Source: Felis catus
Lineage: Eukaryota
DNA: 64,000 nucleotides
Direction of reading: 5' to 3'
NCBI RefSeq assembly: GCF_018350175.1
Contig: NC_058368.1
Span: forward strand, 15,998,001-16,062,000
Every line of letters starts with the position of its first letter. The first letter of the stretch is position 1. Shown here piece by piece: positions 973-40,000 of the stretch. Position numbers and translations under genes: made by a program. Under the pieces are notes generated by a model. The model ran no database searches. It was not told the DNA's origin and was given only the letters and a program-made list of their open reading frames with translations.

Positions 973-2381
973 TTGCAGCATTTGTGTTAGATTATAAATG
1001 CCACCAGAACATATAGAAGATATTTACTTAATTTAATCTGCATAGATTTTAAGAGAGACACTTTATGGATAAATGGTTCCGAATATTAAGTTTTAAATTT
1101 GGATTTAGCTGTGCTTTATTTTTTTTTTTCACTCCATCACCCAGTATTTGGGTAAGTGGTTGTATTCTTTTAACAAATATAAATAAACACACATATACTA
1201 AATATGAAACAGTTAAACAGCAAAAGCCTGTGTTAGATAGATTAGGCTCAGCTCCAAGAGAGAATGGATCCTGAACATACAAATATTTGTATCAAGAGTC
1301 AGGAAATAAATAAAAAGGAATGAACTTTATGGAATAAAGCAATGGAGAAGAGTCTCAGGGAAATTTTTTAGTACAGAAAGAGCATATTCACCTTAGTCCT
1401 TCCCTCTTCAGTGGTGTAGCACAGAAGATGTTCACAAACATTCAAATGGTTGGTGATGGGGGAAGGTTGGTGGTGTAGGAAGACACTGGGCTCACCGCGT
1501 CCTGCGGATCACTTAGATTCCACCAACACCTGCCTAAATAACCCAGAAAATCGCCAGAAGACTGGCAGAACGGATTCTCCAGAGCCAAGCATAGACAAGA
1601 GGGGCACGAAAGAGGGAAGGAAAGGCGGAGAGGCGGTGCGCGCTACACGGACTGGCGGGAGGGAGCCGGGGTGGTGGAGGGGCAGCCAGCCCACCCAACA
1701 AGGCAGAGCCCCCGAGTCTGGCTTGCAAAAGCGGAGGGGCCAGACTCTGTGAGTTCTGACAACCAGTGGGACTTAACATCTGGAAAGTTATAAATTAACA
1801 GATCTGCTCAGAGAATGGAAGGGCTGGAGGACAACGGGAGGGAAAGTTGTTGAGCCCCGGACAACAGAGCACAGCTTGGCAGGAAACAGAGGTGCTCACT
1901 AGTGCCATCTCCTTCGCCCATCCCCCAGCCAAAATCCCAAAGGAACCAGTTCCTGTCAGGAAACTTGCTTGCTCGGGGCAAACACCGAACCCTGTGCTTC
2001 TGCAGATCCGTCCCTCCGGCGGGTCTGACTACATCCTGGTGCCACAGGGCCCCTCCAGAAGTGGATCTCCAAAGGAAAAGTGAGCTGATCCTGCCCCTCC
2101 TGCCCCTGAGCACCTTGACGATCCACCCCAGCTAATACACCAGGTCCCCAGCACCACAAGCCTGGCAGTGCACAAGTAGCCCAGACTGGCCACGCCACCC
2201 CACAGTGAATCCTGCCCCTAGGAGAGGGGAAGAGAAGGCACACACCAGTCTGAGTGTGGCCCCAGTGGTGGACTGGGGACAGACATCAGGTCAGACTGTG
2301 GCCCACCCACCAATGCAAGTTATTCAAGACAGCACAGGGGAAGTGCCCTGCAGTTCTGCACCACTCCAGGGACAATCCAAA

Positions 2382-3273
2382 ATGACGAAACAGAAAAATT
2401 CCCCTCAAAAAAACCTCCAGGAAATAACGACAGCTAATGAACTGATCAAAAACGAATTGAACAATATAACAGAAAGTGAATTTAGATTAATAGTCACAAA
2501 ATTAATCGCTGGGCTTGAAAACAGTATAAAGGACAGCAGAGAATCTATTCCTACAGAGATCAAGGGACTAAGAAAGCCAGGAGGAACTAAAAAATGCTAT
2601 TAATGAGCAGCAAAATAAAATGGAGATGACCATGGCTAGGATTGAAGAGGCAGAGGAGAGAATAGGTGAACTAGAAGATAAAATTATGGAAAAAGAGGAA
2701 GCTGAGAAAAAGAGAGATAAAAAAAATCCAGGCGTTTGAGGGGAAAATTAGAGAACTAAGTGATGTACTAAAGAGAAATAATCTATGCATAATTGGTATT
2801 GCAGAGGAGGAAGAGAGAGGGAAAGGTGCTGAAGGTATACTTGAAGACATCATGGCTGAGAACTTCCCTGATCTGGGGAAGGAAAAAGGCATTGAAATCC
2901 AAGAGGCACAGAGAACTCCCTTCAGACGTAACTTGAATCGATCTTCTGCACGACATATCATAGTGAAACTGGCAAAATACAGGGATAAAGAGAAAATTCT
3001 GAAAGCAGCTAGGGATAAACGTGCTCTAACATATCAAGGGAGACCTATAAGACTCGTGACGGATCTCTCTACTGAAACTTGGCAGGCCAGAAAGGAATGG
3101 CAGGAAATCTTCAATGTGATGAACAGAAAAATAATCAGCCGAGATTCCTCTATCCAGGAAATCTGTCATTTAGAATAGAAGGAGAGATAAAGGTCTTCCC
3201 AAACAAACAAAAACTGTAGGAATTCATCACCACTAAACCAGCCCTACAAGAGATCCTAAGGGGGATCCTGTGA
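2382..3273 (+). pseudogene. L1 ORF1p (RNA-binding chaperone), disrupted
   Basis: MTKQKNSPQK...MAENFPDLGKE...RHIIVKLAK...ALQEILRGIL*; frameshifts near 2575, 2720 and 3130; in-frame TAG at 3217-3219. Confidence 0.95.
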
Positions 3274-3323
3274 GACAAAGTACCAGAGACATCGCTACAA
3301 GCATGAAACCTACAGACATCACA

Positions 3324-6300
3324 ATGACTCTAAACCCATATCTTTCTATAATAACACTGAATGTAAATGGACTAAATGCGCCAACCAAAAGACATAGGGT
3401 ATCAGAATGGATAAAAAAAACAAGATCCATCTATTTGCTGTCTACAAGAGGCTCATTTTAGACCTGAGGACACTTTCAGATTGAAAGTGAGGGGGTGGAG
3501 AACTATTTATCATGCTACTGGAAGACAAAAGAAAGCTGGAGTAGCCATACTTATATCAGACAAACTAGACTTTAAATTAAAGGCTGTAACAAGAGATGAA
3601 GAAGGGAATTATATAATAATTACAGGGTCTATCCATCAAGAAGAGCTAACAATTATCAACGTCTATGTGCCGAATACAGGAGCCCCCAAATATATAAAAC
3701 AATTACTCACAAACATAAGCAACCTTATTGACAAGAATGTGGTAATTGCAGGGGACTTTAATACCCCACTTACAACAATGGATAGATCATCTAGACACAT
3801 GGTCAATAAAGAAACAAGGGCCCTGAATGACACATTGGATCAGATGGACTTGACAGATATATTTAGAACTCTGCATCCCAAAGCAACAGAATATACTTTC
3901 TTCTCGAGTGCACATGGAACATTCTCTAAGATAGATCACATTCTGGGTCACAAAACAGCCCTTCATAAGTATACAAGAATTGAGATCATACCATGCATAC
4001 TTTCAGACCACAATGCTATGAAGCTTGAAATCAACCACAGGAAAGTCTGGAAAACCTCCAAAAGCATGGAGGTTAAAGAACACCCTACTAAAGAATGAAT
4101 GGGTCAACCAGGCAATTAGAGAAGAAATTAAAAAATATATGGAAACAAATGAAAATGAAAATACAATAACCCAAACACCTTGGGATTCAGCGAAGGCAGT
4201 CCTGAGAGGAAAATACATTGCAATCCAGGCCTATCTCAAGAAACAAGAAAAATCCCAAGTCAAAATCTAACAGCCCACCTAAAGGAAATAGAAGCAGAGC
4301 AGCAAAGACACTCCAAACCGAGAAGAAGAAGAGAAATAATAAAGATCAGAGCAGAAATAAACAATATAGAATCTAAAAAAACTGTAGAGCAGATCAACAA
4401 AACCAAGAGTTGGTTTTTTGAAAAAATAAACAAAATTGACAAACTTCTAGCCAGGCTTCTCAAAAAGAAAAGGGAGATGACCCAAATAGATAAAATCATG
4501 AATGAAAATGGAATTATTACAACCAACCCCTCAGAAATACAAGCAATTATCAGGGAATACTATGAAAAATTATATGCCAACAAACTGGACAACCTGGAAG
4601 AAATGGACAAATTCCTAAACACCCACACACTTCCAAAACTGAAACAGGAAGAAATAGAAAGCTTGAACAGACCCATAACCAGCGAAGAAATTGAATCAGT
4701 TATCAAAAATCTCCCAACAAATAAGAGTCCAGGACCAGATGGCTTCCCTGGGGAATTCTACCAGACGTTTAAAGCAGAGATAATACCTATCCTTCTCAAG
4801 GTATTCCAAAAAATAGAAAGGGAAGGAAAACTTCCAGACTCATTCTATGAAGCCAGTATTACTTTGATTCCTAAACCAGACAGAGACCCGGTAAAAAAAG
4901 AACTACAGTACAATATCCCTGATGAATATGGATGCAAAAATTCTCAATAAGATACTAGCAAATCGAATTCAACGGCATATAAAAAGAATTATTCACCATG
5001 ATCAAGTGGGGTTCATTCCTGGCATACAGGGCTGGTTCAACATTCACAAATCAATCAACGTGATACATCACATTAATAAAAGAAAAGAGAAGAACCATAT
5101 GATCCTGTCAATCAATGCAGAAAAAGCATTTGACAAAATTCAGCATACTTTCTTAATAAAAATCCTCGAGAAAGTCGGGATAGAAGGAACATACTTAAAG
5201 ATCATAAAAGCCATTTATGAAAAGCCCACAGCTAATATCCTCCTCAATGGGGAAAAACTGAGAGCTTATCCCCAGAGATCAGGAACACGACAGGGATGTC
5301 CACTCTCACCACTGTTGTTTAACATAGTGTTGGAAGTTCTAGCACCAGCAATCAGACAACAAAAGGAAATCAAAGGCATCAAAATTGGCAAAGATGAAGT
5401 CAAGCTTTTACTTTTTGCAGATGACATGATACTATACATGGAAAATCCGAAAGACTCCACAAAAGTCTGCTAGAACTGATACATGAATTCAGCAAAGTTG
5501 CAGGATACAAAAATCAATGTACAGAAATCAGTTGCATTCTTATACACTAATAATGAAGCAACAGAAAGAGAAATAAAGAAACCAATCCCATTCACAATTG
5601 CACCAAGAAGCATAAAATACCTAGGAATAAATCTAACCAAAGATGTACAAGATCTGTATGCTGAAAACTCTAGAAAGCTTATGAAGGAAATTGAAGAAGA
5701 TATAACGAAATGGAAAAACATTCCGTGCTCATGGGTTGGAAGAATAAATATTGTCAAAATGTCAATACTACCCAAAGCCATCTACACATTCAATGCAATC
5801 CCAATCAAAATTGCACCAGCATTCTTCTTGAAGCTAGAACAAGCAATCCTAAAATTTATATGGAACCACAAAAGGCCCCGAATAGCCAAAGTAATTTTGA
5901 AGAAGACCAAAGCGGGAGGCCTCACAATCCCAGACTTTAGCCTCTACTACAAAGCTGTAATCATCAAGACAGCATGGTATTGGCACAAAAACAGACACAT
6001 AGACCAATGGAATAGAATAGAAACCCCAGAACTAGACCCACAAAAGTATGGCCAACTAATCTTTGACAAAGCAGGAAAGAATATCCAATGGAAAAAAGAC
6101 AGTGTCTTTGACAAATGGTGCTGGGAGAACTGGACAGCAACATGCAGAAGAATGAAAGTAGACCACTTTCTTACACCATTCACAAAAAGAAACTCAAAAT
6201 GGATAAAGGACCTGAATGTGAGACAGGAAACCATCAAAATCCTAGAGGAGAAAGCAGGAAAAGACCTTTCTGACCTTAGCCGCAGCAATTTCTTACTTGA

Positions 6301-7141
6301 CACATCCCCAAAGGCAAGGGAATTAAAAGCAAAAATGAACTATTGGGACCTCATGAAGATAAAAAGCTTCTGCACAGCAAAGGAAACAATCAACAAAACT
6401 AAAAGGCAACCAACAGAATGGGAAAAGATATTTGCAAATGACATATCGGACAAAGGGCTAGTATCCAAAATCTATAAAGAGCTCACCAAACTCCACGCCC
6501 GAAAAACAAATAACCCAGTGAAGAAATGGGCAGAAAACATGAATAGACACTTCTCTAAAGAAGACATCCGCATGGTCAACAGGCACATGAAAAGATGCTC
6601 AACATTGCTCCTCATCAGGGAAATACAAATCAAAACCACACTCAGATATCACCTCACGCCAGTCAGAGTGGCCAAAATGAACATATCAGGAGACTATAGA
6701 TGCTGGAGAGGATGTGGAGAAATGGGAACCCTCTTGCACTGTTGGTGGGAGTGCAAACTGGTACAGCCACTCTGGAAAACAGTGTGGAGGTTCTTCAAAA
6801 AATTAAAAATAGACCTACCCTATGACCCAGCAATAGCACTGCTAGGAATTTACCCAAGGGATACAGGAATACTGATGCATAGGGGCACTTGTACCCCAAT
6901 GTTTATAGGAGCACTCTCAACAATAGCCAAATTGTGGGAAAAGCCTAAATGTTCATCAACTGATGAATAGATAAAGAAATTGTGGTTTCTATACACAATG
7001 GAATACTACATGGCAATGAGAAAGAATGAAATATGGCCCTTTGCAGCAACGTGGATGGAACTGGCAAATGTGATGCTAAGTGAAATAAGCCATACAGAGA
7101 AAGACAGATACCATATGTTTTCACTCTTATATGGATCCTGA
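3324..7141 (+). pseudogene. L1 ORF2p (APE endonuclease + reverse transcriptase + Cys-rich domain), disrupted
   Basis: ITLNVNGLN, GDFN and SDH endonuclease motifs; QGCPLSP and FADD RT motifs; HCWWEC; split across ORFs 3481-4098, 4180-4950, 4922-5473 and 5483-6970. Confidence 0.97.
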
Positions 7142-7729
7142 GAAACTTAGCAGGAACCCATGGGGGAGGGGAAGGAAAAAAAAAGAGGTTAGAGTGGGAG
7201 AGAGCCAAAGCATAAGAGACTCTTAAAAACTGAGAACAAACTGAGGGTTGATGGGGGGTGGGAGGGAGGGGTGGGTAGGTGATGCGCATTGAAGAGGGCA
7301 TCTTTTGGGATGAGCACTGGGTGTTGTATGGAAACCAATTTGACAATAAATTTCATATATTAAAAAAAAATAGTTGGTGATGGAGAGACCTAACTTCTGT
7401 AGTTTCTGGGTTGTGCATATTAGTGCAAACACAGCTCTAAAGAGAAAAATGAAGTACTAACATAAAAGTGATAGACATACAGTTGATGCTCTACATGTAG
7501 ATTAGGCACTAAACCCATACTTTGTTAACTGAACTTTCAGCAATTGCAGACATTGATTTTTGTTTGCAATGGTATACAGCATTGGTGTCAGGAACATAAC
7601 CTGCCTGTTGTGAATTAGCTTAGTGAAAGCAAATCTCCTAAAACCCAGAATAGTTCATGCAGGCTAAATACTGCATCAATGACATCAGAAGAGCAGGTTA
7701 GTGATATCACCCAAATTATTCATAACCAA

Positions 7730-7990: not shown

Positions 7991-10900
7991 GTTCACAGTT
8001 CAAGGCAACAACAACAACAGCAGCAATCCTACCCTGTGGTTATAGCCATTTTTAAGTTAATGCTAATGAGATACTTAGAGTTAATGATGCAGGCTAAATT
8101 CATTGTGGTTATTTCAAGGTCCTGAGTTAAAAACACTGCCCAGGTGAACAGGTAGGACTAGCGGCTCTCTGGCCTGAGACTGCGGTCCCATTTGAGGTAA
8201 ATGGTGGACTAGTAGATCAGCTGGGGATTTATCAGGGGTTCCCAGGAAGTGAAACAATCCTAGGGTTTGATAAGCTCTCCACATATCTCAGTTTAACCAG
8301 TGCCTATGTTCATGTGCAGCAGAGACAGAAATGGGCCCAAGCCTTCCATACATTCCTGGCTAATGGAATGTCACATGCTTAGGGAAGACTCAAAAGAACT
8401 TGGTAGAAAGTAAAAGCTGGAGCAGGTTTGAAACTGGCCTGAACTTTGAATGTACTCTAGGCCACACACAGATCCATCAGAAGAGCAGAAAGCCTTATTA
8501 GACTGAGGTCCTTGAGCACAATCTGTGAAAAGTCTTTGCATGAACAGTAAGCTATATGTATACTCAGTGATTCCTGGGAAACCAGGCTTAAAAATAAAAG
8601 CAAGAAAAAAAATAGTGGAGACATGAGACACACTTCACAGACTTAGTTCAGGTTAGTTATCAAAGAATCAACAATAACAACTCTCCGAGAGTAAAATAAC
8701 AATCTAGAGTTGGTATGGTATATTATGTAAAATTTCAAGTACTCAATAAGAGATTAGAAGACATGCAAGAAAACCATAAATTATGTCCCATACTTAGCAA
8801 AATAAATAGTGGTGTGAAACTCCATTTAACTTACAAAGACTTTAAGCAACTATCATAATAATGTTTAGTGACCTAAAAAAATCATGTCTATAGAATAAAA
8901 AAAGTATAATAAGAATGATTTAACAAAATATGAAGAGATAGAAATTATAAAAAAAAGAACCAAATGGAAATCCTACCATTGAAAAGTATACTAAGTGAAT
9001 TGAAAACCTTACTAATGGCATTCAGTAGCAGATTTGATATAGCAGAAAAGAGAATTTGTGAACTTGAACATAGATCAATAGAGGCTATCCATTCTGAAGA
9101 CAGAAAAATAATTGAAGAAAATGAACAGAGCTTCAGAGAACCATGGAACGACATAAAGCATACTAAATTATGGTAGCCTTAAGAAGAGAGGAGATAACGA
9201 GGCAGAAATAACATTTGAAGAAATAATGGCTGCAGATTTTCCATATTCACAGAGTCAAGAAGTGCAACAGAACCCAACAGAACCAAGAAAACTAAACATA
9301 GTTATAGACCTAAACACATCATAGTCAACCTGTTGAGAAACAAAGAGAACATTTTGAAAGAAGCAAGAGACAATGTTTCATCAAGTACAAGATAACAAGT
9401 AAAAATTAATGGCTGACTTCACATTAAAAGCAATAAAAGTCAGAAGGTAGTAGGATGCCATATTCAAAGTGTTGAAGCAAAAATCTGTCAAGATAATTTT
9501 GTAGCAATGTAGCAATATTGTTCTTCAAAATTTGGACACAATAAAGAAAACCAAAATAAACAAAAATGGAAGGAATTAGTTGTCAACATATATGTCTTAC
9601 AAGAAGTACTAAAGGATGTAAGTTTTAGTCTAGAAGGACGTGACACCAAATAGTAACTCAAATCCACTTAAAAAATGAGAAATGATAGAAATGACAAGTG
9701 GATAAATACAAGATTCTATTAATATATTTATTTCATTTCTCTTTAAAGATTCTTCAAAGGACAAAACTCTATAAAGCAGTACTTATAACACTGTAATGGT
9801 GAGTTTTAACATAGTATAGGTGTTAGATATAATAATAACACTAAGGAGTAGAGGAGAAAAGGAGATATATTGGAAAAAAGTTTGTATATTTTGCCATAGT
9901 TGTTAGTGTTATTCTGAAAAAGATTGTGAAAAGGTAATCATAATAACTAAGAAAATAACTAAAAAATATGGGAAAAAATTAACAGAGGAATTAAAATAGT
10001 ACACACACAGACACAATACAAAGTTAGACACTAAACAAAATATATTGAATCAAAAAGACATGAGACATGTAGAAAATAAAAAGAAAAATACAGACATATA
10101 TCCTAACATATCAATATTATTTTAATGTGAATGGACAAACACACCATTCAAAAGACAATGATTGTCAGACTAAATAAAAATACAATACACAACCATAAGC
10201 TGTCAATAAGAGACACATCTTAAATTCAAAGACATGGATATGTTGGAAATAAAAGAATGGAAAGTTACACTATGCAAGCAAATAACCATATGAAAGCTAG
10301 TCATTATATTAATATAGCAAATAGACTTTATGATGAGAAATATTACTAAAGAAAAAGGATATTTTGTAATGATGATGGAAGGAAGATGTAAATGCACCTA
10401 ACAACAGAACTCTAAATACATGAAGCAAAATGTGACAAAAGTGAAAAGAAAGACATTTAACAAACGTAACTGGAGATGTAAATACTTTACTTTTAATAAT
10501 TGATAGGACCATTAGACAGGAAATCACCAAGCTTAAAGAAGACTTGAGCAACACAAACAGCTCTACTGACACATCCACCCAATGACTACAGAGTACACAT
10601 TCTTTTCTAGTGCATATGTGACACTCTCCAGGGTAGGCCATTTAGTGGCCACAAAACAAGTCTAAATTTTAAAATATTGAAATTGTAAGTATATTCTCTG
10701 ACCATTGTGGAATTTGATTAGATCTCCATATAGAAAAAAAATCTTAGAAACTTCCATATATTTCAAAATTAAACACACTTTTACATAACTCAGGGGTGAA
10801 AGAGGAAATGATAGTGAAAATGAATGAACTGGATAGAAATAATACAACATATCAAAATTGAGAGGATGTAGTTAAAACAATGTTTAGAGAAAAAATTAAA

Positions 10901-11119
10901 ATTCCAAATACCTATATTAGAAAAAAAGAAAGGTCTTAAATAATCCAAACTTTCACCTTAATTTTAAAGATATTCAAACTAAATATAGCATATGGAAAAA
11001 TAATATGGAATGTAGAGAGATACAGAAGTAAAAAAATATAGAATATAGAAATATCAAAAAAGGAAAACTAACTATCCCCAAGTAAACAGAAGGAATGAAA
11101 TAATAAAGATTATTGTGGA

Positions 11120-11329
11120 GAGGTGCCTGGGTGGCTCAGTCAGTTAAGTGTGCAATTTTGACTCAGATCATGAATTCACGGTTTTTGACTTTGAGCCCCA
11201 CATTGGGCTATGCGCTGACAGCCGAGAGCCTGGAGACTGCTTTCAGATTCTGTGTCTCCCTCTCTCTCTGTCCTTCCCCTGCTTGTTCTCTTTCTCTCAA
11301 AAATAAATGAATAAATAAACTTAAAAAAA
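11120..11329 (+). mobile_element. Carnivore SINE (SINEC)
   Basis: ggtgcctgggtggctcagtcagttaag head, (CT)n region, A-tail, short TSD attgtgga. Confidence 0.95.
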
Positions 11330-12191
11330 CATTGTGGAAATCAATGAAATAGAAAACAGAGCAATAAAGAAAAGTAGTGAGGCTAAATGTTGGTTCTTTG
11401 AAAAGACCAACAAAATTGAAAAGCCTTTTAGATAGAATTACAAAGAAAGAAAGCAGACTTAAAATACCAACCAAAGTCATGAATGAAAGATATGACAACA
11501 CTATTAATTCTACAAAAATTTAAAAAGATTTTAAGGGAATATTATAAAAAACACTACCAACAAGTTATCTTAGATGAAACACAAATTTCTAAAAAAATAC
11601 AAATTACTGGGATGGAGTCTATAAGAGATAAAATATGATTAGATCTATAAGAAGTATAGGTATTGAATTAGTTATTAAAAATATTTTCATAAAGAAATGT
11701 CCAGGCCTAAACTGGCTTTATTAGTTAATTTTATCAACTATTTAAATAAATGATATCAAATATATAAGCTTTCTCAAAAAACAGTAGAGGAAGGAACAGT
11801 TTCCAAGTCATTCTCAAGTCACTATTACCCTGATACCAGAACCAGACAAAGGAAGCAAAATAAAACTGCAGACCAAGATCCTTCATGGATATAAATATAA
11901 AAATTCTTGAAAAGGCATTAACTAATCTAATATAGCAAACTACAAATGAATTAATACACCTGGGTTTTAGTATAGGATTTATTCCATGAATGAAAAATTG
12001 GTTTAATATTTGAACATCCATTAAGGAGAAAAAAACTTATATGATCACGTTAATGGACCCAGAAAAAGCATTTCACAAAATCCAACATCCATCCATGATT
12101 TAAAAAAAAACATGTACAAAAAACTAAAAGTCTGGGTATAGAAGGAAACTTCCTTTCTCTGTTAAAGGCACTTAATGAAAAATCTATTACC

Positions 12192-12670
12192 AGAGCCAGT
12201 TTTGTGGGCATGGACTTTTGCAGTCACACAATCTGTGTTTAGGAGGGCCCTGAAGTCATCTACTTGAAAGTCTTAATATTTTATCTTTGAGCCTGTGTGT
12301 TTTGTAAGTTAAGTCCAATGGGACACTGAAACATTCATGCGAGCAGATCTTGTGCAAGTATGCCCACTGTTTCTGACTGCCCTATTTACATAGAATTTGT
12401 GCAATGCTCCCATTAACATAGAATTCTTGTGGACTTACAGGCAGTTCAGTGAGAGTCAAAGCAAGTGCAAGATAAACGCATTTTGTTACATCTGCAAAGA
12501 GTAAATGGATTCTTACAACCCTGAGAGGCCATGCTTTCCATTTGAATTAGTACTTGGAAAAACAGAAAGAAGACAATGGCATTCTAATAAACACAAACAA
12601 CCAAGGAATTGTATCTTTTCTTACTTGTGTTACTTCCAAACATTTATGCTGAATAGGATGACATAGAAGG
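12192..12670 (+). mobile_element. hAT-Tip100 DNA transposon fragment (MER45B/Zaphod-like), right end missing
   Basis: cagagccagttttgtgggcatg start, then ttgtaagttaagtccaatgggaca and agaaagaagacaatggcattctaa, matching recalled MER45B consensus. Confidence 0.7.
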
Positions 12671-13237
12671 AACTTTTAGAAGAAAACGTGGGAGAAAATC
12701 TTTGTGCCCTTGGATTAGGTGGAGATTTTTCTTAGATAAGAGATCAAAAGTGTAAGCCATAAATATAAAATTTAATAAATTGCATTTTATCAAAATTAAA
12801 ACTTTTATGCTTCAAAATATATCATTGAGAAAATCTAGAAAAGTCATAGACTGGGAGAAAATATTTGTGAGTCATATATTTGACAAAGGACTTGCATGAG
12901 AATGTATGAAGGATTCTTAGAAGTAAAGAATAAACAGATAAACCAATTGCAAAATGGGCAAAGACTTGAATAGACATCGCACTAACAAATACATATGAAT
13001 GCCTGAGAAGCACATGAAAAGATGCTAACATCATTAGTTGTTAGGGAAATGCAAATCAAAGCCATAATGAAGTTCACACCCAATAGTATGGATAAAAAAA
13101 AGGCAGGGGATGATTCCAAGTGTGGGGGAGGGGGGTTGGTGTGGAAAAACTTGAATCTTCATGTTTTTTATGGGAATGTAAAAATGGTACAGCCTCTTTG
13201 GAAAAGTTTGGTAGTTTCTTAAATAGTTACAAATGTA

Positions 13238-13455
13238 GGGGCGCCTGGGTGGCTCAGTCGGTTAAGCGTCAGACTTCAGCTCAGGTCACGATCTCGCGGT
13301 CAGTGAGTTCGAACCCCGCCTCGGGCTCTGGGCTGATGGCTCAGAGCCTGGAGCCTGTTTCTGATTCTGTGTCTCCCTCTCTCTCTGCCCCTCCCCCGTT
13401 CATGCTCTGTCTCTCTGTCTCAAAAATAAATAAAACGTTAAAAAAAATTAAAAAA
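13238..13455 (+). mobile_element. SINEC_Fc-type SINE
   Basis: ggggcgcctgggtggctcagtcggttaagcgt head; TSD aaata(g/t)ttacaaatgta at 13221-13237 and 13456-13472. Confidence 0.97.
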
Positions 13456-14169
13456 AAATATTTACAAATGTAAACTTACCAGGTGACCCAGCAATTCCAC
13501 TTCATTTCTATACTCAAGATAAATGAAGACTTATTGGCCCACAAAGATGTGTATGCAAATGTTCATAGCAGCATTAGTCATAAAAGAGAAAAACTGGAAA
13601 CAATTCCAATGTCCATCAACTAAAGACTGAATAAACAAAATGTGCCTTATCCTTACAATAGAGTGGTATTTATCAATTAAAAGGAATGAAATACTGATAT
13701 ATGCTACATGAATAAACCTTCAAAAATGGTAAGAAAAAGAAGGCACATGCAAAACACTGAACATTGTAAGACTCCATTTATATGAAGTGTGCAGAAAAAG
13801 AAAATTTATTGTCATAGAAAGCAGATCAGTGGTTACCTGTGTCTAGGATGGGAGCACAGAATAACGGTAAATGGACTTGGAGAGAATTTTTTCAAATGAT
13901 GAAGATGTTCTAAAATTGGATTGTGTAGTTGATTGTATAACTCCATAATTTTGCTAAATAAATTTACTAAAAATTACTGAATTGTGCACTTACAATGGGT
14001 AAATTACTTGACATGTAAATTATTTATTATTAAACCTATTAAAAAACACTGCCACCAACACAAAATGCCAAATACTATTGAGTAACCCCAACTGATGGAC
14101 TGAGTTACATGCATTTACTATTTTTATAATCCAATTAGGAAAATACAGAAAACTCTGTTTTTAAGAAAC

Positions 14170-17810: not shown

Positions 17811-18694
17811 GGGTGAGTGGTGGAATTACCTGATTTACACCATGTCATGTGCATGTTTTACTACAAAGAACCTTAACTGTGGAATGAGATTTGATAATAT
17901 TATAACTTGAGAAGTTCTTACAAGCTATAATTCTGGACATTATTTTATGAATAATTCCCACTATACATAAAAATATAATAAATCACTTCATTTGAAAAAC
18001 TTGTTTGTCATGAACATCATGTTTCTTTTGGAAAGATCTGGATCAATTTTCATATGGGCTGTGTTTTCCATTGATGGAAAGGAGAAGATACAAAGAGGTA
18101 TAAAAGACAAGTGAGAGGACACTGCTCAGATTTTGACGTTGAGCTTGAAAAGAAAAAAAAAACCAACACTTGTATAAAAAGAAAATAAGGCAGAAGATAT
18201 ACATAGTGTGGTAAACATAACTTTACCTTGATTTCTTCTATAATTAAAAAATTATATTTTGTATGTAAAGAGACACTAAAGAAGAAATGCAAATTGATGA
18301 TAATTATTTTTAGAAGTCAACATTACTAATACACACATGTAAATTAAATTCATGGTGGAATTTAATTTTCAAACATTGCAAAAAGATGTGTTGGCAAGGT
18401 TGCAGTGAGACAAGCTTTCAAAGAGTCCTATGGGAATTTATATTGATACCATCTTTTTTGGAAATCATTTTGACAATACGAATTAGTAACCTTAAAACAG
18501 TTCACACACATTGAGTATAATTGCATTTAGTTCCACCTGAGAGAGCTTAAATGTTTAACATTATAGATATGCTTGAGGGCAATATGCATTATCCGTGAAA
18601 TGGACAATTATGCAGCTACTTGTTATTTTTTTTAAATTCTTAATTCATGAGAAATGTTAATGATGTCTTGTTAGGTTAAAAATTATATATTTTA

Positions 18695-18891
18695 GGGGCG
18701 CCTGGGTGGCGCAGTCGGTTAAGCGTCCGACTTCAGCCAGGTCACGATCTCGCGGTCCGTGAGTTCGAGCCCCGCGTCAGGCTCTGGGCTGATGGCTCGG
18801 AGCCTGGAGCCTGTTTCCGATTCTGTGTCTCCCTCTCTCTCTGCCCCTGCCCCGTTCATGCTCTGTCTCTCTCTGTCCCAAAAATTAAAAA
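18695..18891 (+). mobile_element. Young SINEC_Fc SINE
   Basis: CpGs intact; perfect 17-bp TSD aaaaattatatatttta. Confidence 0.97.
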
Positions 18892-19109
18892 AAAAATTAT
18901 ATATTTTATAAATTTATAATTTATAATTTTATATATATAAATTGTAATTCCAATAATGTGAGTAGATGCCAATAGTGACCATCAATATAATAGTGGATGA
19001 TTTCTATTCTCTCTTTCTACTTCAGTGTTTCTTACAATTTTTGTTTTGTTTGTTTTGCAGTGAGCATGTTCCACTTTTATAATATATAAATACTTATAAA
19101 CTTTATAAA

Positions 19110-19649: not shown

Positions 19650-19848
19650 TACAAACGTTTTGAGAAGAAGAGTGATTTTAATATTCTTTATACTTTAATA
19701 TATTTTCCAAGTGCTATTATGAGGATGTCACTTTTTATAATTAAAAATCCAGTTTTATCTAACATATAAATTATGTAAACTGGTCATGGTAGGAAAAATT
19801 AAGCAGTTAGGTACATGAAAGTTTTTCTTTCGTGTGCTTTGAAAGTAA

Positions 19849-20473: not shown

Positions 20474-20478
<5 letters not shown>

Positions 20479-20531: not shown

Positions 20532-20532
<1 letters not shown>

Positions 20533-20583
20533 TCCACTCTCCCTATCCCTCTTCTCTGTTTCTGGATCTTTCTCTTAATACAA

Positions 20584-26377: not shown

Positions 26378-26380
26378 AAA

Positions 26381-26601: not shown

Positions 26602-27749
26602 AGAAGTAGGTTCTAATATACTTGGAAAGTTTGTAGTTGGATGGGAAAGGTCTGTCCCACAGAATAAGGGCAATAAGGACACTATGATCCTTTGTGTTCC
26701 AATGAGGTGAGGCACTAAGGAGTCATTCAGAAAAAAATAAAACTATGAACACTAACCAAAGGAGGGTTAGTTGTGCAGGAGGGTGACACGAAATTGACAT
26801 GATTAGAAACAGAACTTAGTTTTCTGTAATCAGGACCTCCTGAATTAAAGCATGAAATGAAGGAAATTGTTATTTTTGCGCAGCCAACTAACCTTTTCTT
26901 TATTTTCTCAAGTCTTTTGAAGTACAATCTTTCAGTCTGCTCTTAAAGCTGGATCAAATACTTAACCTTATTCAGTGATGCTCTCAATGTAAGCTTATTG
27001 AGTGTTTTGGCTCAAAACAATCAGACTTTTCATGAGTGTAGAATTTAAGCAGAATTTGAATATACCTGTACTTCTTTGACGTGAGTTAGAGGTGAGAGGG
27101 CTTTAATCACGATGGTCTGAGTATGCATTTAATAACCTCATCACTCAGTATAAACACATTACTATACACATGTCAAATTGAATTATTAAGCTTATGAAAC
27201 TGAGCCAAAGATAAAAATTTTCTTTAAAAATGGACTAAGACTGTAGTTATTAAGAAATAAAGCATAATTGCTAAATTATGTCAGTGATATACCCAATCTG
27301 GATATATATCTTGAAAATATTTAAGTTGTGATGTTCCCATATTAGAAGGATTCCTGGAAAGGCTTTTCCTGCCATTAGGCAAATTTATACTTAAATAGTT
27401 CTAGTGGGATATTTGGCATTTGTTTACTTTTGTGGGGCAATTTAAACTGTGGCATTTTTACTTCCATGATGGAACTTTGCTAAATTACTAGACCTAGTAG
27501 AAATTTATTCCACCTGCTGCATAAAGATAGTCTAATTCTAAATTATGTAATACCAATTTGAAAATTATATTATTAATTCATGATGTGGTTAAGAGAACAG
27601 GCTCCGAAGTCAGACTGCTAATGTTGAAATTCTAGCTCTATGATTGAATGGTTTCTTAATCTAAGCAAGTTTCTTAATTTTTCACAGCTCCTGTTTTTCT
27701 CATCCATAAATCAGTAATAATAATTAGGTTAATTAAAATGATACATGTA

Positions 27750-27972
27750 GGGGTGCCTGGGTGGCGCAGTCGGTTAAGCATCCGACTTCAGCCAGGTCAC
27801 GATCTCGCGGTCCGTGAGTTCGAGCCCTGCGTCAGGCTCTGGCCTGATGGCTCAGAGCCTGGAGCCTGTTTCCGATTCTGTGTCTCCCTCTCTTTCTGCC
27901 CCTCCCCCGTTCATGCTCTGTCTCTCTCTGTCCCAAAAATAAATAAACGTTGAAAAAAAAATTAAAAAAAAA
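27750..27972 (+). mobile_element. Young SINEC_Fc SINE inserted in a MIR relic (~27580-28050)
   Basis: Perfect TSD taaaatgatacatgta at 27734-27749 and 27973-27988. Confidence 0.96.
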
Positions 27973-28059
27973 TAAAATGATACATGTAAAACACTTAGCA
28001 TAGTGGATGGCATATATAAATTAGACAATAAATGTTCACTCTTATTGTATGTAGCCATC

Positions 28060-29680: not shown

Positions 29681-31146
29681 GGCCTGTTAAGACCAGCATA
29701 ATTTCAGTATTATTTAAGATAAGAAAGTAAATCCAGACTTAAAAATCTTTTCCCTCCATCAAAGCTTGGGAAGATGATGGAGTAGGAGGCCTCTGAGCTC
29801 ACCCCATCCCATGTTTTCAACTAGATATCATCCACATCCAAACCAACAAACCAGAGAGTAATCTGAAGACTGGAAGAACAAACTCCACAATTAATATAGA
29901 GAAGAAGTTGCATCTGAAAGGTTACGAAGATCAGATAGGTAGAGGGAGGCTTCCCGAAGGCGGGAGCTCGCATGCCAGAGAGGGCAGAGAAATGGGGGAA
30001 AGACTAATCCACACAGACTAATGTGCTGGGCTTTAGAAACCAGAGGGGCTGCATTCTGTAAGTTTATAAAACCAGTGGGTCTTGAAAGCTTTGGAGGTCA
30101 GCTGACTCAGCACTGAATGACCTGGGAGGGCAAGTGATAGCTGGGTCACCCTCCTTAAAGAGACAGCAGCCTGTGTGAAGAGGTAACATAAAAATGGCAG
30201 TTTGCACAATGTGGGGGGCAAACAGGAGACAGATCATTTCATATTGATTTCTGAGAATTTCGGGGGAATTCTCAAAAAACAAGGTAGCTGGCAGGTGACA
30301 CCTTCCTCCCCCCATTCCCAGCACAAGCACAGAGACACTTGTGGGAAGGGGGGCTGCACAGACACTACCTAACCTGCTATCAGTGCATCATGCCCACAAG
30401 TTCTCCTGAGGACTCACCCACTCCAAACCTTCTGGTCTCAGCCCTGAGCTCAGGGGGAATTTTGTTAAAGCCAAGCCTGTCTCCTGCCCAGCTGCTGGGT
30501 AAACAGCTGCCACCTCGTGCTGCACTAAGCCACATGACTCCTGCATTCAGAGCACTTCAAAGAATTTGGCATAGGGCTAGTGGCCCAGAAGGTATTTTGC
30601 TAACATCATCACCCTGCTCCCAAGTTCCCTGGGGAGGGGCACATACTCCCCAGAGCTAGCCTTTCTGGGTCCCACTAACACAACAGAGAGTAAGCACAGC
30701 ACACAATAGGCAAAGTTAGTACAGGCAACTGCATGAAAAGGAAAAGTGACTCAGATACAAAAAACAGGGCATAAGCAACACACATAGGATAGCCTTCTGA
30801 AGTGCCAAGTTCTGGTAAACAAGGGAAACTGCACTGAAGGGCACTCCAGGACCTCTTCTACATAAAGTCCCTACTTTCAAGAGCAGAAGACATAGCTGAC
30901 TTTATTAACACACAAAAATAGACACAGAGAGGCAAGCAAAATGAAGAAAGAGCAATTTATTCCAAATGAAAGAACAGGACAACGCCACAGCCAGAGATCT
31001 AAGTGAAACAGATATAAGTAACATGTCTATAAATAATTTAAAACAATAATCATAAGACAGTCACCGAACTTGAGAGAGTGGAAGACATGAGTAAGACCCT
31101 TAATATGGAAAAGGAATAACATAGTATATAGAGTGAAGTAAGGAGG

Positions 31147-31157
31147 AAGATGGCGGC
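31147..31157 (+). promoter_or_regulatory. YY1-type motif at the L1 5' end (internal promoter)
   Basis: AAGATGGCGGC fits the YY1 consensus at the position expected for L1 5' ends; decayed in copy A (aaggttggtggt). Confidence 0.6.
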
Positions 31158-32044
31158 ATAGGAGTACACTGGGCTCACCACTTCCTGCGGATCACTTAGA
31201 TTCCACCCACACCTGCCTAAATAACCGAGAAAACTAGCAGAACGGATTCTCCAGAGCCAAGCATAGACGAGAGGCTCACGGAAGAGAGTAGGAAGGACGG
31301 AGAGGCAGTGCGTGCTACACGGACTGGAGGGAGGGACCCAGGGCGGGGGCGGCCCCCCAGCCAAGCAGAGCCCCCGAGTCTGGCTGGTAAAAATGGAGGG
31401 GCTGGATGGAGTGTGTTCTGACAGCAAGCGGGACTTAACATCTGGAAGGTTATAAGTTAACAGATCTGCTCGGAGAACAGGAGGGCTGCAGGACAACAGG
31501 AGGGAGAGTTGTTGAGTCCCAGACAACAGAGCGCAGCTTGGCGGGGAACAAAGGCGCTAGCCAGTACCATCTCCCTTGCCCATCCCCCAGCCAAAATCCC
31601 AAAGGGAACCAATTCCTGTCAGGGAATTTTCTTGCACCGCCCAAACACCAAAATGCTGTACTTCTTCAGATCCATCCCTCCGACGGGTCTGACAAACTCC
31701 CAGTGCCGCAGGACCACTCCAGAAGTGGATCTCCTAAGGAAAAGGGAGCTGAGCCTGCCCCTCGCGCCCCTGTGCACCTTGCCAATACACCCCAGCTAAT
31801 GCGCCAGAACCCCAGCACCACAAGCCTGGCAGTGTGTAAGTAGCCCAGACGGCCACGCCACCCCACATTGAATCCCGCCGCTAGGAGAGGGGAAGAGAAG
31901 GCACACACCAGTCTGAGTGTGGCCCCAGAGTTGGCTGGAGGCAGACATCAGTTCTGACTGCGGCCCCGCCCAGCAATGCAAGTTATTCAAGACAGCACAG
32001 GGGAAGTGCCCTGCAGCTCTGCACCACTCCAGGGACTATCCAAA

Positions 32045-32934
32045 ATGAAACGGAAGAATTCCCCTCAAAAGAATCTCCAGGAAATAACGACAGCTAACGA
32101 ACTGATCAAAAACGATTTAAACAATATAACAGAAAGTGAATTTAGAATAATACTCATAAAATTAATCGCTGGGCTTGAAAACAGTATAGAGGACAGTAGA
32201 GAATCTATTGCTACAGAGATCAAGGGACTAAGGAACAGCCAGGAGGAGCTAAAAATGCTATAAATGAGCTGCAAAATAAAATAGAGACAACCACAGCTCG
32301 GATTGAAGAGGCAGAGGAGAGAATAGGTGAAATAGAAGATAAAATTATGGAAAAAGAGGAAGCTGAGAAAAAGAGAGATAAAAAAAATCCAGGCGTATGA
32401 GGGGAAAATTAGAGAACTAAGTGATGCACTAAAGAGAAATAATCTACACATAATTGGTATCCCAGAGGAGGAAGAGAGAGGGAAAGGTGCTGAAGATATA
32501 CTTGAAGACATCATGGCTGAGAACTTCCCTGATCTGGGGAAGGAAAAAGGCATTGAAATCCAAGAGGCACAGAGAACTCCCTTCAGACGTAACTTGAATC
32601 GATCTTCTGCATGACATATCATAGTGAAACTGGCAAAATACAGGGATAAAGAGAAAATTCTGAAAGCAGCTAGGGATAAACGTGCTCTAACATATAAAGG
32701 GAGACCTATAAGACTCGTGACGGATCTCTCTACTGAAACTTGGCAGGCCAGAAAGGAATGGCAGGAAATCTTCAATGTGATGAACAGAAAAATAATCAGC
32801 CGAGATTCCTCTATCCAGGAAATCTGTCATTTAGAATAGAAGGAGAGATAAAGGTCTTCCCAAACAAACAAAAACTGTAGGAATTCATCACCACTAAACC
32901 AGCCCTACAAGAGATCCTAAGGGGGATCCTGTGA
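32045..32934 (+). pseudogene. L1 ORF1p of copy B, disrupted
   Basis: MKRKNSPQK...; frameshifts near 32250, 32380 and 32790; stops near 32612 (TGA) and at 32878-32880 (TAG). Confidence 0.95.
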
Positions 32935-32984
32935 GACAAAGTACCAGAGACATCGCTACAAGCATGAAACCTACAGACATCACA

Positions 32985-35900
32985 ATGACTCTAAACCCAT
33001 ATCTTTCTATAATAACACTGAATGTAAATGGACTAAATGCACCAACCAAAAGACATAGGGTATCAGAATGGATAAAAAAAACAAGACCCATCTATTTGCT
33101 GTCTACAAGAGGCTCATTTTAGACCTGAGGACACTTTCAGATTGAAAGTGAGGAGATGGAGAACTATTTATCATGCTACTGGAAGTCAAAAGATAGCTGG
33201 AGTAGCCATACTTATATCAGACAAACTAGACTTTAAATTAAAGGCTGTAACAAGAGATGAAGAAGGGAATTATATAATAATTACAGGGTCTATCCATCAA
33301 GAAGAGCTAACAATTATAAATATCTATGTGCCGAATACGGGAGCCCCCAAATATATAAAACAATTACTCACAAACATAAGCAACCTTCTTGACAAGAATG
33401 TGGTAATTGCAGGGGACTTTAATACCCCACTTACAACAATGGATAGATCATCTAGACACACGGTCAATAAAGAAACAAGGGCCCTGAATGACACATTGGA
33501 TCAGATGGACTTGACAGATATATTTAGAACTCTGCATCCCAAAGCAACAGAATATACTTTTTTCTCGAGTGCACATGGAACATTCTCCAAGATAGATCAC
33601 ATTCTGGGTCACAAAACAGCCCTTCATAAGTATACAAGAATTGAGATCATACCATGCATACTTTCAGACCACAATGCTATGAAGCTTGAAATCAACCACA
33701 GGAAAAAGTCTGGAAAACCTCCAAAAGCATGGAGGTTAAAGAACACCCTACTAAAGAATGAATGGGTCAACCAGGCAATTAGAGAAGAAATTTAAAAATA
33801 TATGGAAACAAACAAAAATGAAAATACACTAACCCAAACACCTTGGGATGCCGCTAAGGCAGTCCTGAGAGGAAAATACATTGCAATCCAGGCCTATCTC
33901 AAGAAACAAGAAAAATCCCAAATACAAAATCTAACAGCACACCTAAAGGAAATAGAAGCAGAGCAGCAAAGACACCCCAAACCCAGCAGAAGAAGAGAAA
34001 TAATAAAGATCAGAGCAGAAATAAACAATATAGAATCTAAAAAAAACTGTAGAGCATATCAATGAAACCAAGAGTTGGTTTTTTGAAAAAATAAACAAAA
34101 TTGTTAAACCTCTAGCCAGGCTTCTCAAAAAGAAAAGGGAGATGACCGAAATAGATAAAATCATGAATGAAAATGGAATTATTACAACCAACCCTTCAGA
34201 AATACAAGCAATTATCAGGGAATACTATGAAAAATTATATGCCAACAAACTGGACAACTTGGAAGAAATGGACAAATTCCTAAACATCCACACACTTCCA
34301 AAACTCAAACAGGAAGAAATAGAAAGCTTGCACAGACCCATAACCAGCAAAGAAATTGAATCAGTTATCAAAAATCTCCCAACAAATAAGAGTCCAGGAC
34401 CAGATGGCTTCCCTGGGGAATTCTACCAGACGTTTAAAGCAGAGATAATACCTATCCTTCTCAAGGTATTCCAAAAAATAGAAAGGGAAGGAAAACTTCC
34501 AGACTCATTCTATGAAGCCAGTATTACTTTGATCCCTAAACCAGACAGAGACCCGGTAAAAAAAGAACTACAGGCCAATATCCCTGATGAATATGGATGC
34601 AAAAATTCTCAATAAGATACTAGTAAATCGAATTCAACAGCTTATAGAAAGAATTATTCACCAGGATCAAATGGGATTCATTCCTGGCATGCAGGGCTGG
34701 CTCAACATTCGCAAATCAATCAACGTGATACATCACATTAATAAAAGAAAAGAGAAGAACCATATGATCCTGTCAATCGATGCAGAAAAAGCATTTGGCA
34801 AAATTCAGCATCGATTCTTAATAAAAACCCTCGAGAAAGTCGGGATAGAAGGAAAATACTTAAACATTATAAAAGCCATTTATGAAAAGCCCACAGCTAA
34901 TATCCTCCTCAATGGGGAAAAACTGAGAGCTTATCCCCAGAGATCAGGAACACGACAGGGATGTCCACTCTCACCGCTGTTGTTTAACATAATGTTGGAA
35001 GTTCTAACACCAGCAATCAGACAACAAAAGGAAATCAAAGGCATCAAAATTGGCAAAGATGAAGTCAAGCTTTCACTTTTTGCAGATGACATGACATTAT
35101 ACATGGAAAATCCGAAAGACTCCACAAAAGTCTGCTAGAACTGATACATGAATTCAGCAAAGTTGCAGGATACAAAAATCAATGTACAGAAATCAGTTGC
35201 ATTCTTATACACTAATAATGAAGCAACAGAAAGAGAAATAAAGAAACCGATCCCATTCACAATTGCACCAAGAAGCATAAAATACCTAGGAATAAATCTA
35301 ACCAAAGATGTACAAGATCTGTATGCTGAAAACTCTAGAAAGCTTATGAAGGAAATTGAAGAAGATATAAAGAAATGGAAAAACATTCCATGCTCATGGG
35401 TTGGAAGAATAAATATTGTCAAAATGTCAATACTACCCAAAGCCATCTACACATTCAATGCAATCCCAATCAAAATTGCACCAGCATTCTTCTTGAAGCT
35501 AGAACAAGCAATCCTAAAATTCATATGGAACCACAAAAGACCCCAAATAGCCAAAGTAATTTTGAAGAAGAAGACCAAAGCAGGAGGCATCACAATGCCA
35601 GACTTTAGCCTCTACTACAAAGCTGTAATCATTAAGACAGCATGGTATTGGCACAAAAACAGACACATAGACCAATGGAATAGAATAGAAACCCCAGAAC
35701 TAGACCCACAAAAGTATGGCCAACTAATCTTTGACAAAGCAGGAAAGAATATCCAATGGAAAAAAGACAGTGTCTTTGACAAATGGTGCTGGGAGAACTG
35801 GACAGCAACATGCAGAAGAATGAAAGTAGACCACTTTCTTACACCATTCACAAAAGTAAACTCAAAATGGATAAAGGACCTGAATGTGAGACAGGAAACC

Positions 35901-36808
35901 ATCAAAATCCTAGAGGAGAAAACAGGAAAAGACCTTTCTGACCTTAGCCGCAGCAATTTCTTACTTGACACATCCCCAAAGGCAAGGGAATTTAAAGCAA
36001 AAATGAACTATTGGGACCTCATGAAGATCAAAACTTCTGCACAGCAAAGGAAACAACCAACAAAACTAAAAGGCAACCAACAGAATGGGAAAAGATATTT
36101 GCAAATGACATATCAGACAAAGGGCTAGTATCCTAAATCTATAAAGAGCTCACCAAACTCCACACCCAAAAAACAAATAACCCAGTGAAGAAATGGGCAG
36201 AAAACATGAATAGACACTTCTCTAAAGAAGACATCCGCATGGTCAACAGGCACATGAAAAGATGCTCAACATTGCTCCTCATCAGGGAAATACAAATCAA
36301 AACCACACTCAGATATCACCTCACGCCAGTCAGAGTGGCGAAAATGAACATATCAGGAGACTATAGATGCTGGAGAGGATGTGGAGAAACGGGAACCTTC
36401 TTGCACTGTTGGTGGGAGTGCAAACTGGTACTTTCACTTTGGAAAACAGTGTGGAGGTTCTTTAAAAAGTTAAAAATAGACCTACCCTATGACCCAGCAA
36501 TAGCACTGCTAGGAATTTACCCAAGGAATACAGGAGTACTGATGCATAGGGGCACTTGTAACCCAATGTGTATAGCAGCACTCTCAACAATAGCCAAATT
36601 ATGGAAAGAGCCTAAATGTCCATCAACTGATGAATGGATAAAGAAATTGTGGTTTCTGTACACAATAGAGTACCACGTGGCAATGAGAAAGAATGAAATA
36701 TGGCCCTTTGTAGCAACATGGATGGAACTGGCGACTGTGATGCTAAGTGAAATAAGCCATACAGAGAAAGACAGATACCATATGTGTTCACTCTTATATG
36801 GATCCTGA
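32985..36808 (+). pseudogene. L1 ORF2p of copy B, disrupted
   Basis: GDFN/SDH, QGCPLSP/FADD and HCWWEC motifs spread over six ORF fragments. Confidence 0.97.
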
Positions 36809-37029
36809 GAAACTTAACAGGAACCCATGGGGGAGGGGAAGGAAAAAAAAAAGAGGTTAGAGTGGGAGATAGCCAAAGCATAAGAGACTCTTAAAAACTG
36901 AGAATAAACTGAGGGTTGATAGGTGGTGGGAGGGCGGGGAGGGTGGGCAATTGGTATTGAGGAGGGCACCTGTTGGGATGAGCACTGGGTGTTGTATGGA
37001 AACCAGTTTGACAATAAATTTCATATATT

Positions 37030-37074
<45 letters not shown>

Positions 37075-40000
37075 ATAGTAAAATAAAATCATATAAAAAA
37101 AATTGGAAGCATTTTTAAATGGGGAAAATTATACTCTGTGCTTTTAAAGAAGATTAAAAGTCTTCTTTGTAAAATAAAAAAAAAATAGGAATAACATAGT
37201 AGACATAAAAGATACAATAAATGAAATGAGAAACACACTTGATAGAATGAACAGCTAGATGAATGAAGCAGAGGAATGAATTAGTGACCTAGAAGACAGT
37301 GGGTGGGGCAAATAATCAAGCTAAACAAAAGAGAGAAAAGAATTATATAAAGTAAGAATATACTTAGGGAACTCCATGACTCCATCAAATGTTAACTTTC
37401 ATATTATAGGAGTATCGAGAGATGGAGAGACAGAAAGGGGGGCAGATAATTTATTTGAAGAAATAATAGCTGAAAACTTCCCTAATCTGGGGAAGGAAAC
37501 AGATATCCAGACCCAGAAGGCACAGAGTACACCAACAGAATCAACAAAAGCAAGCCTACACCAAGACATATTGTAATTAAATTTACAAAATATAGTGATA
37601 AAGAAAAAATTCTAAAAGCATCAAGACAAAGAAATCACTGACTTACAAAGGAAAACCCGTAAAGGTAGCAGGAGATTTTTCCAACGGAAACTTTGCAAGC
37701 CAGAAGGGAGTAGCATGATATATTCAAAGTGCTGAATGAGAAAAATCTGCAGCCAAGAATATTCTATCCACAAGGCTATCAATCAGAATAGAGGAGAGAG
37801 AAAATGTTTACCAAACAAACAACAACTAAAGGAGTTCATGACCACTAAACCAGTTCTGCAAGACAAGGGACTCTTTGAGTGGAGAAGAGAGACCAAGAGA
37901 CAGTATAGAGGTAAGAAACATAGAAACAGTAAAAATGAATATTTCTGTAAAAGAAACTGTCTAGGAATGCACACAAAAAGGATATAAAATAAAATAATGT
38001 ATACCTAAAAAATGGAGAAGAGAGGAGAAAACAAAGGTTTCAAACTTAAATGACAATCAACTTAATATAGACTGCTGTATGCAGAAAAGGTGGTATACAA
38101 ACTGAGTGGTAACAGCGTATCAGAAACCACTAATAAATATGCAAAGAATAAAGAAAGGAATCCAAGTATATCACTAAAAAAAATCAGCAAAACATTAGAA
38201 AGATAAGAAAGGATCAGAGAATATCTTCAGAAACAACCACAAAACAAGTAATAGCATGGCAGTAAGTACATACATATTAATAATTACTTTGAATGTAAAT
38301 GGACTAAAAGCTTCGGTCAAAAAGCATAGGATGGCAGAGTGGATAAAAAAACAAGACCCATCTATATGTTGCCTACAAGATACCCATTTTAGACCTAAAG
38401 ACAACTGCAGATTGAAAGTGAGAGGATGGAGAAACATCTGTCACACAAATGGATGTTAAAAGGAAGCTGGAATAGCAATACATAAATCAGACAAAATAAA
38501 CTTAAAAACAAAGGCTGTAACAAGAGACAAAGAAGGACACTATATAATCATGTGGGGACACTCCAACAAGAAGATATAACAATTCTAAATATTTATGCAT
38601 CCAACATGCATAAATACATAAATATGTAAAACACTTAATAACAAACATAAAGAAACTAATTGATAATAATTAAATAGTACTAAGAGACTTGAACACCGCT
38701 TACATCAATACACAGATCATCTAAATAGAACATCAACAAATAAAATACAGCTTTGGATGACACACTGGAACAAATGGATTTAACATATATATTCAGAACA
38801 TTCCATCTTACTATAACAGAATACGTATTCTTTTCAAGTGTACATGGAACATTCTCCAGAATAGATCATATATTAGCACAGAAAACAAACCTCCACAAGT
38901 TCAAGATTGAGATAATATCATGCATATTTTATGACCACAACTCTATGAAACTATAAGTCAACCACCAGAAAAAAACTGGAAAGACCACAAATACATGGAA
39001 GTTAAATGACATGCTACTAAACAATTAATGGGTCAACCAGGAAATAAAAGAGAAAATTAAAAAATACATGGAAACAAATGAAAATGAAAACACCATGGTC
39101 CAAAATCTTTGGGATGTGGCAAAAGCAGTTCTAAGAGGCCTACCTCAAGAAGCAAGAAAAATCTTAAATACACAACCTAACCTTGCACCTAAAGAAGCTA
39201 GAAAAAGAACAAACAACACCTAATGCCAACAGAAGGAAAGAAATAATAAAGATTAGAACAGAAATAAATGATATAGAAACTAAAAACAAAACAAAAGTAA
39301 ATAGAGCAAATCAATGAAACCACAAAACTTGTAGCCAATCTTATCCAGAAGAAAAGAGAAAGGAGTCAAATTAATAAGATCACGAATGAGAGAGGAGAAA
39401 TAACAACCACTACCACAGGAATACAAATAATCATAAGAGAATATTATGAAAAGTTGTATGCCAACAAATTGGACAACCTATAAGAAATGGATAAATTCCT
39501 AGAATCATAAATACTACCAGAAATGAAACAGGAGGAAATAGAAAATTTGAACAGATAACCAACAAAGAAATTGAGTCAGTAACAAAAAACTCCCAACAAA
39601 CAAGTCTAGGACCAGATGGCTTCACAGGTGAATTCTACCAAACATTTAAAAAAGAGTTAATGCCTATTCTTCTCAAACTATTCCAAAAAATATAAAAGGA
39701 AAGAAAACTTCCAAATTCATTCTATGAAGTCATCATTACCCTGATACCAAATCCAGATAAAGACAGCACTAAAAATGAGAACTATAGACCAATATCCCTG
39801 ATGAACATAGATGCAAAAATTTGCAATAAAATACTAGCAAACTGAATTCAACAATACATTAAAAAATCATTCACCATGATCAAATGGTATCAATTCCTGG
39901 GTTGCAAGTGTCATTTAATATTCACAAATCAATCAATGTGATACAGCACATCAATAGGAGAAATGATAAGAACCATATGATCATTTCAATAGATTACAAA

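Follow-up and report, generated by a model that had tools for sequence, protein, structure and literature searches.

Shared lesions in two neighbouring full-length L1 elements of Felis catus and their probable origin by patchy gene conversion

Two L1 copies with separate insertion histories

The DNA analysed is a window of 64,000 nucleotides from Felis catus (NCBI RefSeq assembly GCF_018350175.1, contig NC_058368.1, positions 15,998,001 to 16,062,000 of the forward strand), which carries two full-length felid L1 (LINE-1) elements, here called copy A and copy B, that share seven inactivating lesions whose origin is considered below. Coordinates refer to the window. Copy A occupies 1460..7372 on the forward strand, with a 5' untranslated region (UTR) reaching to about 2381, a broken first open reading frame (ORF1, 2382-3273), a broken second frame (ORF2, 3324-7141), a 3'UTR and a short A tail at 7362-7370. 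Copy B (31127..37186) lies on the same strand at an offset of about 29.66 kb, with an (AAAT)n tail at 37033-37077. In a self-BLAST of the window, A 1458-7372 and B 31142-37041 align with 94.5% identity over 5929 columns.

Both copies carry the features of a full-length LINE-1, namely the RNA-binding domain of ORF1, the endonuclease and reverse transcriptase of ORF2, a target site duplication (TSD) of their own and an A-rich 3' tail. Pieces of copy A match PF02994 (ORF1), PF03372 (endonuclease) and PF00078 (reverse transcriptase), the match to human ORF2p has E=6e-217, and ORF2 homology covers residues 2-1274 in both A and B. Among the matches listed, lion and cat proteins are the closest named homologues.

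The TSDs of copy A lie at 1449..1459 and 7373..7383 on the forward strand, agreeing at 15 of 16 positions when the five bases preceding the left one are counted, and those of copy B at 31112..31126 and 37187..37201 on the same strand, where the 15-bp repeat is perfect. The two pairs differ from each other. Comparison of the flanks of A with those of B yields only four short matches (28-230 bp), none at the junctions, and homology between the copies ends at the element ends. Since the TSDs differ and the junction flanks are unmatched, A and B inserted independently, and a preliminary description of this DNA, which had presented both as full-length elements with separate insertions, is borne out on this point. 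Segmental duplication was rejected as the origin of the pair because the flanks are unrelated.

Still within its TSDs, the L1 sequence of copy B is followed by some 78 bases unrelated to L1 and by another A tract (37098..37186, forward strand), probably a 3' transduction carried along from B's source locus. This segment has no other match anywhere in the window and hence is not the flank of A. Passages of PMC13756887 treat 3' transduction as a marker of the parent element, and in a whole genome the extension could point to the locus from which B came. Copy A was also considered as the parent of B and rejected, given this extension and the divergence of the two 5'UTRs. At the other end of B, about 15 extra bases (31127-31141) separate the left TSD from the start of L1 homology near 31142, which may be an untemplated addition or a short 5' transduction.

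Shared lesions and the mosaic of divergence

Lesions were placed by frameshift-aware alignment to open-frame references, comprising dingo ORF2 (P0200) and Felis catus or ENA ORF1 proteins (P0011, P0014, P0018). All seven lesions that the preliminary description had assigned to both copies were recovered. ORF1 contains a +1 shift near 2722 in A and 32383 in B (A-run 2719-2726), a -1 shift near 3126 and 32787 (A-run 3127-3131) and an in-frame TAG at 3217-3219 and 32878-32880, while ORF2 contains a +1 shift near 3417 and 33078, a -2 shift near 4900 and 34565, a -1 shift near 5463 and 35128 and a +1 shift near 5512 and 35177. Private to A are a -2 shift at 2574, a -2 shift at 4042, a -1 shift at 4260, a 3-bp loss at 5899 and a TAG at 6970; private to B are a -1 shift at 32250, TGA 32614, TAA 33795, a +1 shift at 34042, a -1 shift at 36034 and TAA 36136. 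ORF1 is broken four times in A and five times in B.

The shared lesions were compared with homologues from three protein searches, which listed the best 120 of 1067, 2478 and 8000 matches. At the TAG site, 21 of the 120 listed ORF1 homologues read through and none ends there, and at the site near 4900, 95 of the 120 listed ORF2 homologues are intact and none is in the shifted frame, so the lesions are not the normal state of the family. The preliminary description had named the opposite result, lesions typical of the family consensus, as a refutation of its proposal. The unusual residues to which it had drawn attention are likewise genuine, and none of them turned up in the homologues examined: RFLYP, YPGN, QEAH and AYPQ each occur in 0/120 listed, and ENSRK and DSVFDK in 0/360 listed. 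The A-runs of ORF1 behave differently. The first shows the same shifted frame in 5/120 listed ORF1 homologues, and the second, near the end of felid ORF1, a frame change in 19/120 (5 as -1, 14 as +1), counts in which the query is biased toward such frames. Both runs are slippage hot spots, also in unrelated copies, and the two lesions at these runs, taken by themselves, say little about a common origin. The argument for a common origin is carried by the TAG and the shared missense changes.

Divergence between the copies changes abruptly along the element; all segments lie on the forward strand in both copies. In the 5'UTR, A 1470..2145 differs from B 31153-31809 at 102 of 655 positions (15.6%) and appears unconverted. 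The adjoining segment, A 2146..2801, differs at 48 of 650 positions (7.4%) and appears mostly unconverted, with the shared ORF1 +1 lying inside a 64-bp identical run (2672-2735). A first putative conversion tract follows at A 2802..4129, whose partner is B 32463-33792, with 17 differences in 1328 (1.3%); it holds the ORF1 -1, the TAG and the first ORF2 +1, and its longest identical run measures 344 bp (3036-3379). Divergence is 4.5% over A 4130..4684, falls to 0/184 in an identical patch at A 4685..4868 (partner B 34350-34533), beyond which the shared -2 near 4900 lies by 31 bases, and rises to 6.6% over A 4869..5203. A second putative tract, A 5204..6722 with partner B 34869-36389, shows 27 differences in 1518 (1.8%) and includes two of the shared ORF2 lesions, the -1 near 5463 and the +1 near 5512, followed by a mostly unconverted 3' segment at A 6723..7360 (45/638, 7.1%). 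Five of the seven shared lesions thus fall inside the two long tracts, with one in the 64-bp run and one just past the identical patch.

This eight-segment division corresponds to the lowest penalty used in segmenting the A-B alignment; with the middle penalty the three segments in the centre merge into one of 4.4%, and under the strictest a single core of 2.4% remains between ends of 12.5% and 7.1%. The contrast holds for non-CpG differences and for transversions. Heterogeneity of the non-CpG differences is significant (chi-square 63, 23 df, p=1.4e-5), and the lowest 1000-column window of the coding part contains 8 of 125 differences, a value as low being reached in 0/10000 permutations. The mosaic of low- and high-divergence segments therefore exceeds chance, as is required for conversion. 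Between the two long tracts divergence does not differ significantly (p=0.29); both stand at about one fifth of the value of the ends and may stem from one discontinuous event or from two events of similar age.

Sequence similarity of this kind can also be produced by assembly or polishing cross-talk, in which the sequence of one element is copied into the other, a possibility raised in the preliminary description. Six of the seven lesions are small indels, most of them at short A-runs, and identical A-B runs of 344, 222 and 184 bp occur, as such cross-talk would leave. The tracts are not letter-perfect, however, since the 17 and 27 differences remain in them, of which 6 and 8 are of CpG type, including the private TGA 32614 of copy B. 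At four sites, copy-specific differences stand 3-14 bases from shared changes, a pattern that read mis-mapping would not leave, and neither the TAG nor the missense changes can be homopolymer errors, since all are substitutions, as had already been pointed out. On this in-window evidence, in particular the residual differences inside the tracts, an artefact is hardly likely.

Codon states provide a second view of the same pattern. Conversion predicts a trade-off between shared and private changes at a level sum, whereas descent from one dead master should leave shared derived changes evenly spread. The test used 936 conserved codons, drawn from a felid-like ORF1 panel and from ORF2 columns in which feliform references and dog agree; this agreement was required since a panel dominated by dog does not separate residues typical of the felid family from changes truly shared by A and B. 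The polarised count leaves out A 3324-4140 of ORF2, for which there is no felid reference, and 17 out-of-frame codons. Shared derived states number 24, with 19 in 544 codons of the low-divergence tracts versus 5 in 392 elsewhere (Fisher p=0.037), and private states number 15 in the tracts versus 41 elsewhere. Total decay per copy is similar, at 4.9% in the tracts and 6.5% outside them. Shared derived states thus rise and private states fall in the tracts while their total stays level, which fits conversion.

The same counts bear on an account without any exchange, according to which A and B belong to one narrow subfamily and slippage hot spots gave rise to the same lesions separately in each copy. 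The repeated slippage of the two ORF1 A-runs in unrelated copies agrees with this, as does the fact that several shared residues are ancestral states, present in dog too. Recurrence can yield neither the shared TAG, at which no listed homologue ends, nor the 24 shared derived codon states, and it does not explain how copies with 7% divergence at either end come to differ by 1.3% over 1.3 kb. Independent recurrence is largely refuted, and it ranks as the least probable of the explanations considered.

Gene conversion and the case for a mobilised defective lineage

The shared lesions very likely arose through ectopic gene conversion that acted in patches between A and B, two neighbouring L1s that were already dead. 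Interlocus conversion was one of the options put forward in the preliminary description, and it is the one supported by the patchy divergence and by the concentration of shared changes in low-divergence tracts. Most likely the locus is a clean example of a known mechanism, not a new kind of mobile element. Sharing in a mosaic pattern is given by Fawcett and Innan 2019 (PMC6598467) as a mark of non-allelic conversion among transposon copies.

The sequence of events may be outlined as follows. A and B would be felid L1s of the ordinary kind, both from one older family, each placed by its own event of target-primed reverse transcription, with B landing in a still older L1, and both would then have decayed as dead elements. 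A break in one copy would have been repaired by homology with its partner, which lies in direct orientation at a distance of 29.7 kb, and without crossover, because a crossover would delete or duplicate the roughly 24 kb between the copies. This repair would have overwritten tracts of 1.3 and 1.5 kb together with shorter patches, bringing in the donor's stop, frameshifts and missense changes, after which A and B would have drifted 1-2% apart again. We infer the repair pathway, and likewise the number of events.

Several points weigh against conversion as the explanation. The enrichment of shared derived states is modest at p=0.037, part of the ORF2 polarisation rests on one or two felid references, with the ORF2 stretch named above excluded, and the stronger contrast of shared to private states (p=2e-5) is partly circular, the segments having been defined by A-B divergence. 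Five shared derived residues and two lesions sit in high-divergence segments, and explaining these calls for tracts that are older or shorter, for homoplasy or for subfamily states outside the sample. Synonymous changes account for 52 of 148 A-B coding differences versus 38 in a neutral simulation (p=0.006), an excess that is not significant after splitting and CpG removal (p=0.08-0.09) and that may reflect different source elements. In passages of PMC6598467, finally, conversion of Alu elements is most elevated below 10 kb, a distance well exceeded by the present pair.

The preliminary description had favoured, as a candidate for an undescribed system, a defective full-length L1 master mobilised in trans by the proteins of active L1s, of which A and B would be members. 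Both are true TSD-flanked insertions sharing seven lesions and 24 derived codon states, and a few shared residues (5/392 codons) lie outside the clear tracts, which counts in favour of such a master. Passages of PMC5605252 describe L1 proteins as able to act in trans, and non-autonomous L1 derivatives exist, HAL1 being described in parts of PMC5753468. One master, however, predicts uniform divergence, including the 5'UTR, and the values seen along the element are 15.6, 7.4, 1.3, 4.5, 0, 6.6, 1.8 and 7.1%, with shared derived changes spread unevenly and a 3' extension of B that differs from the flank of A. Two family members 30 kb apart would moreover require a very abundant family, and cis preference, as portrayed in passages of PMC5605252, restricts the rescue of dead L1s.

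The homologues examined also speak against such a family. Diagnostic ORF1 states occur in 0/41, 0/81, 0/32 and 0/30 of the listed homologues that cover them, other shared ORF1 states being carried by 1/82, 1/31 and 5/81. Of 28 feliform-like ORF2 proteins, one has a single residue of the seven that are diagnostic, one covers none of them, and no protein has two or more; two distant proteins that are not felid-like carry two of the seven each. Best identities are 88%, 92% and 91% among the 120 matches listed per search. Exact peptides of A and B were found in 0/10 cases in the protein collection, a weak result in that start codons may be called differently. The shared signature is present in none of the 360 listed homologues, which limits an abundant family to about 4-11% of sampled copies, a bound that a rare or species-specific family would escape; on these sequences, an abundant family in the sampled cats would be excluded. 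With divergent 5'UTRs and ends around cores of 1-2%, B's own 3' extension and the missing signature, the trans-mobilised lineage is unsupported and very unlikely. We give a similarly small chance to a rare, recombinant and fully defective full-length lineage confined to this felid and for that reason missing from the protein collections, copied in trans several times, in which the ends of A and B would have been swapped with other L1s. A true lineage of full-length but non-autonomous elements would call cis preference into question; the evidence speaks against one.

Two wider searches were made. Metagenome contigs scanned for a pattern spanning the TAG gave two matches, neither BLAST-similar to the window; these were dismissed as chance and supplied no felid DNA outgroup. 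In a search of sequencing runs, 24 runs from 12 studies and three coded organisms hold 0.61-0.76 of the sampled words, taken from the 5' flank and 5' part of A; such words do not separate lesions from family sequence, and the result is not evidence for either side. The runs that match best, at 0.76, may come from a related species.

Known systems and neighbouring repeats

L1-L1 gene conversion is reportedly the subject of Burton et al. 1991, as its title has it, and later reports come from primates and mouse cells. In most such cases an old L1 is reportedly overwritten at a single site by a young one whose source is distant or has not been identified. Conversion between A and B would resemble these cases in that one L1 sequence is overwritten by another, but would differ in that it took place between neighbours and passed on sequence that was already dead. 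The features described in passages of PMC6598467 for non-allelic conversion of transposable element copies are matched by separately inserted copies, a mosaic of high-identity patches, shared mutations and a preference for neighbours. The cases covered there are Alu, long terminal repeat (LTR), Ty and Tf2 elements, with rates raised below 10 kb, unlike the present full-length felid L1s, which are 29.7 kb apart with tracts of 1.3-1.5 kb.

HAL1, or half-L1, keeps ORF1 only and forms dispersed families, according to parts of PMC5753468 and PMC13756887. Like HAL1, A and B are L1-derived and would need ORF2p in trans; unlike HAL1, defined by a missing ORF2 and a retained ORF1, they keep the whole length of ORF2, both frames are broken and no third member was found among the homologues examined. 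In the literature searched, with subscription journals thinly covered, no report was found of a full-length, multi-lesion, non-autonomous felid L1 family or of neighbour-to-neighbour felid L1 conversion. Neighbouring L1s that share inactivating mutations and differ little can be mistaken for a subfamily and lead to wrong age estimates.

The host of the B insertion is an older L1 (37202..43096, forward strand), about 74% identical to A and B in ORF2. B lies within its ORF1, homology to which resumes at reference residue 69 directly after B's TSD. Across 30900-43100, the ORF2 homology of this older element is interrupted at about 40456-41238 and again at about 42014-42232, and the second gap corresponds to the SINE-sized repeat of the window (SINE, short interspersed element). 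At its 3' end, 510 bp (42921-43430) are repeated at 46417-46922, 3.5 kb downstream, with 95.9% identity; the edges are abrupt with no clear TSD by eye, and the repeat is possibly a local templated insertion or a small duplication.

Elsewhere in the window, five non-L1 ORFs of 123-143 aa have no Pfam match. Downstream of A, the region 8979-13744 contains very old L1 fragments with 28-50% amino-acid identity to references. Five SINE-sized repeats, at 13219-13468, 18671-18892, 19838-20074, 27724-27980 and 54346-54594, are mutually 91-96% identical and younger than many copies in the window at about 75-80%.

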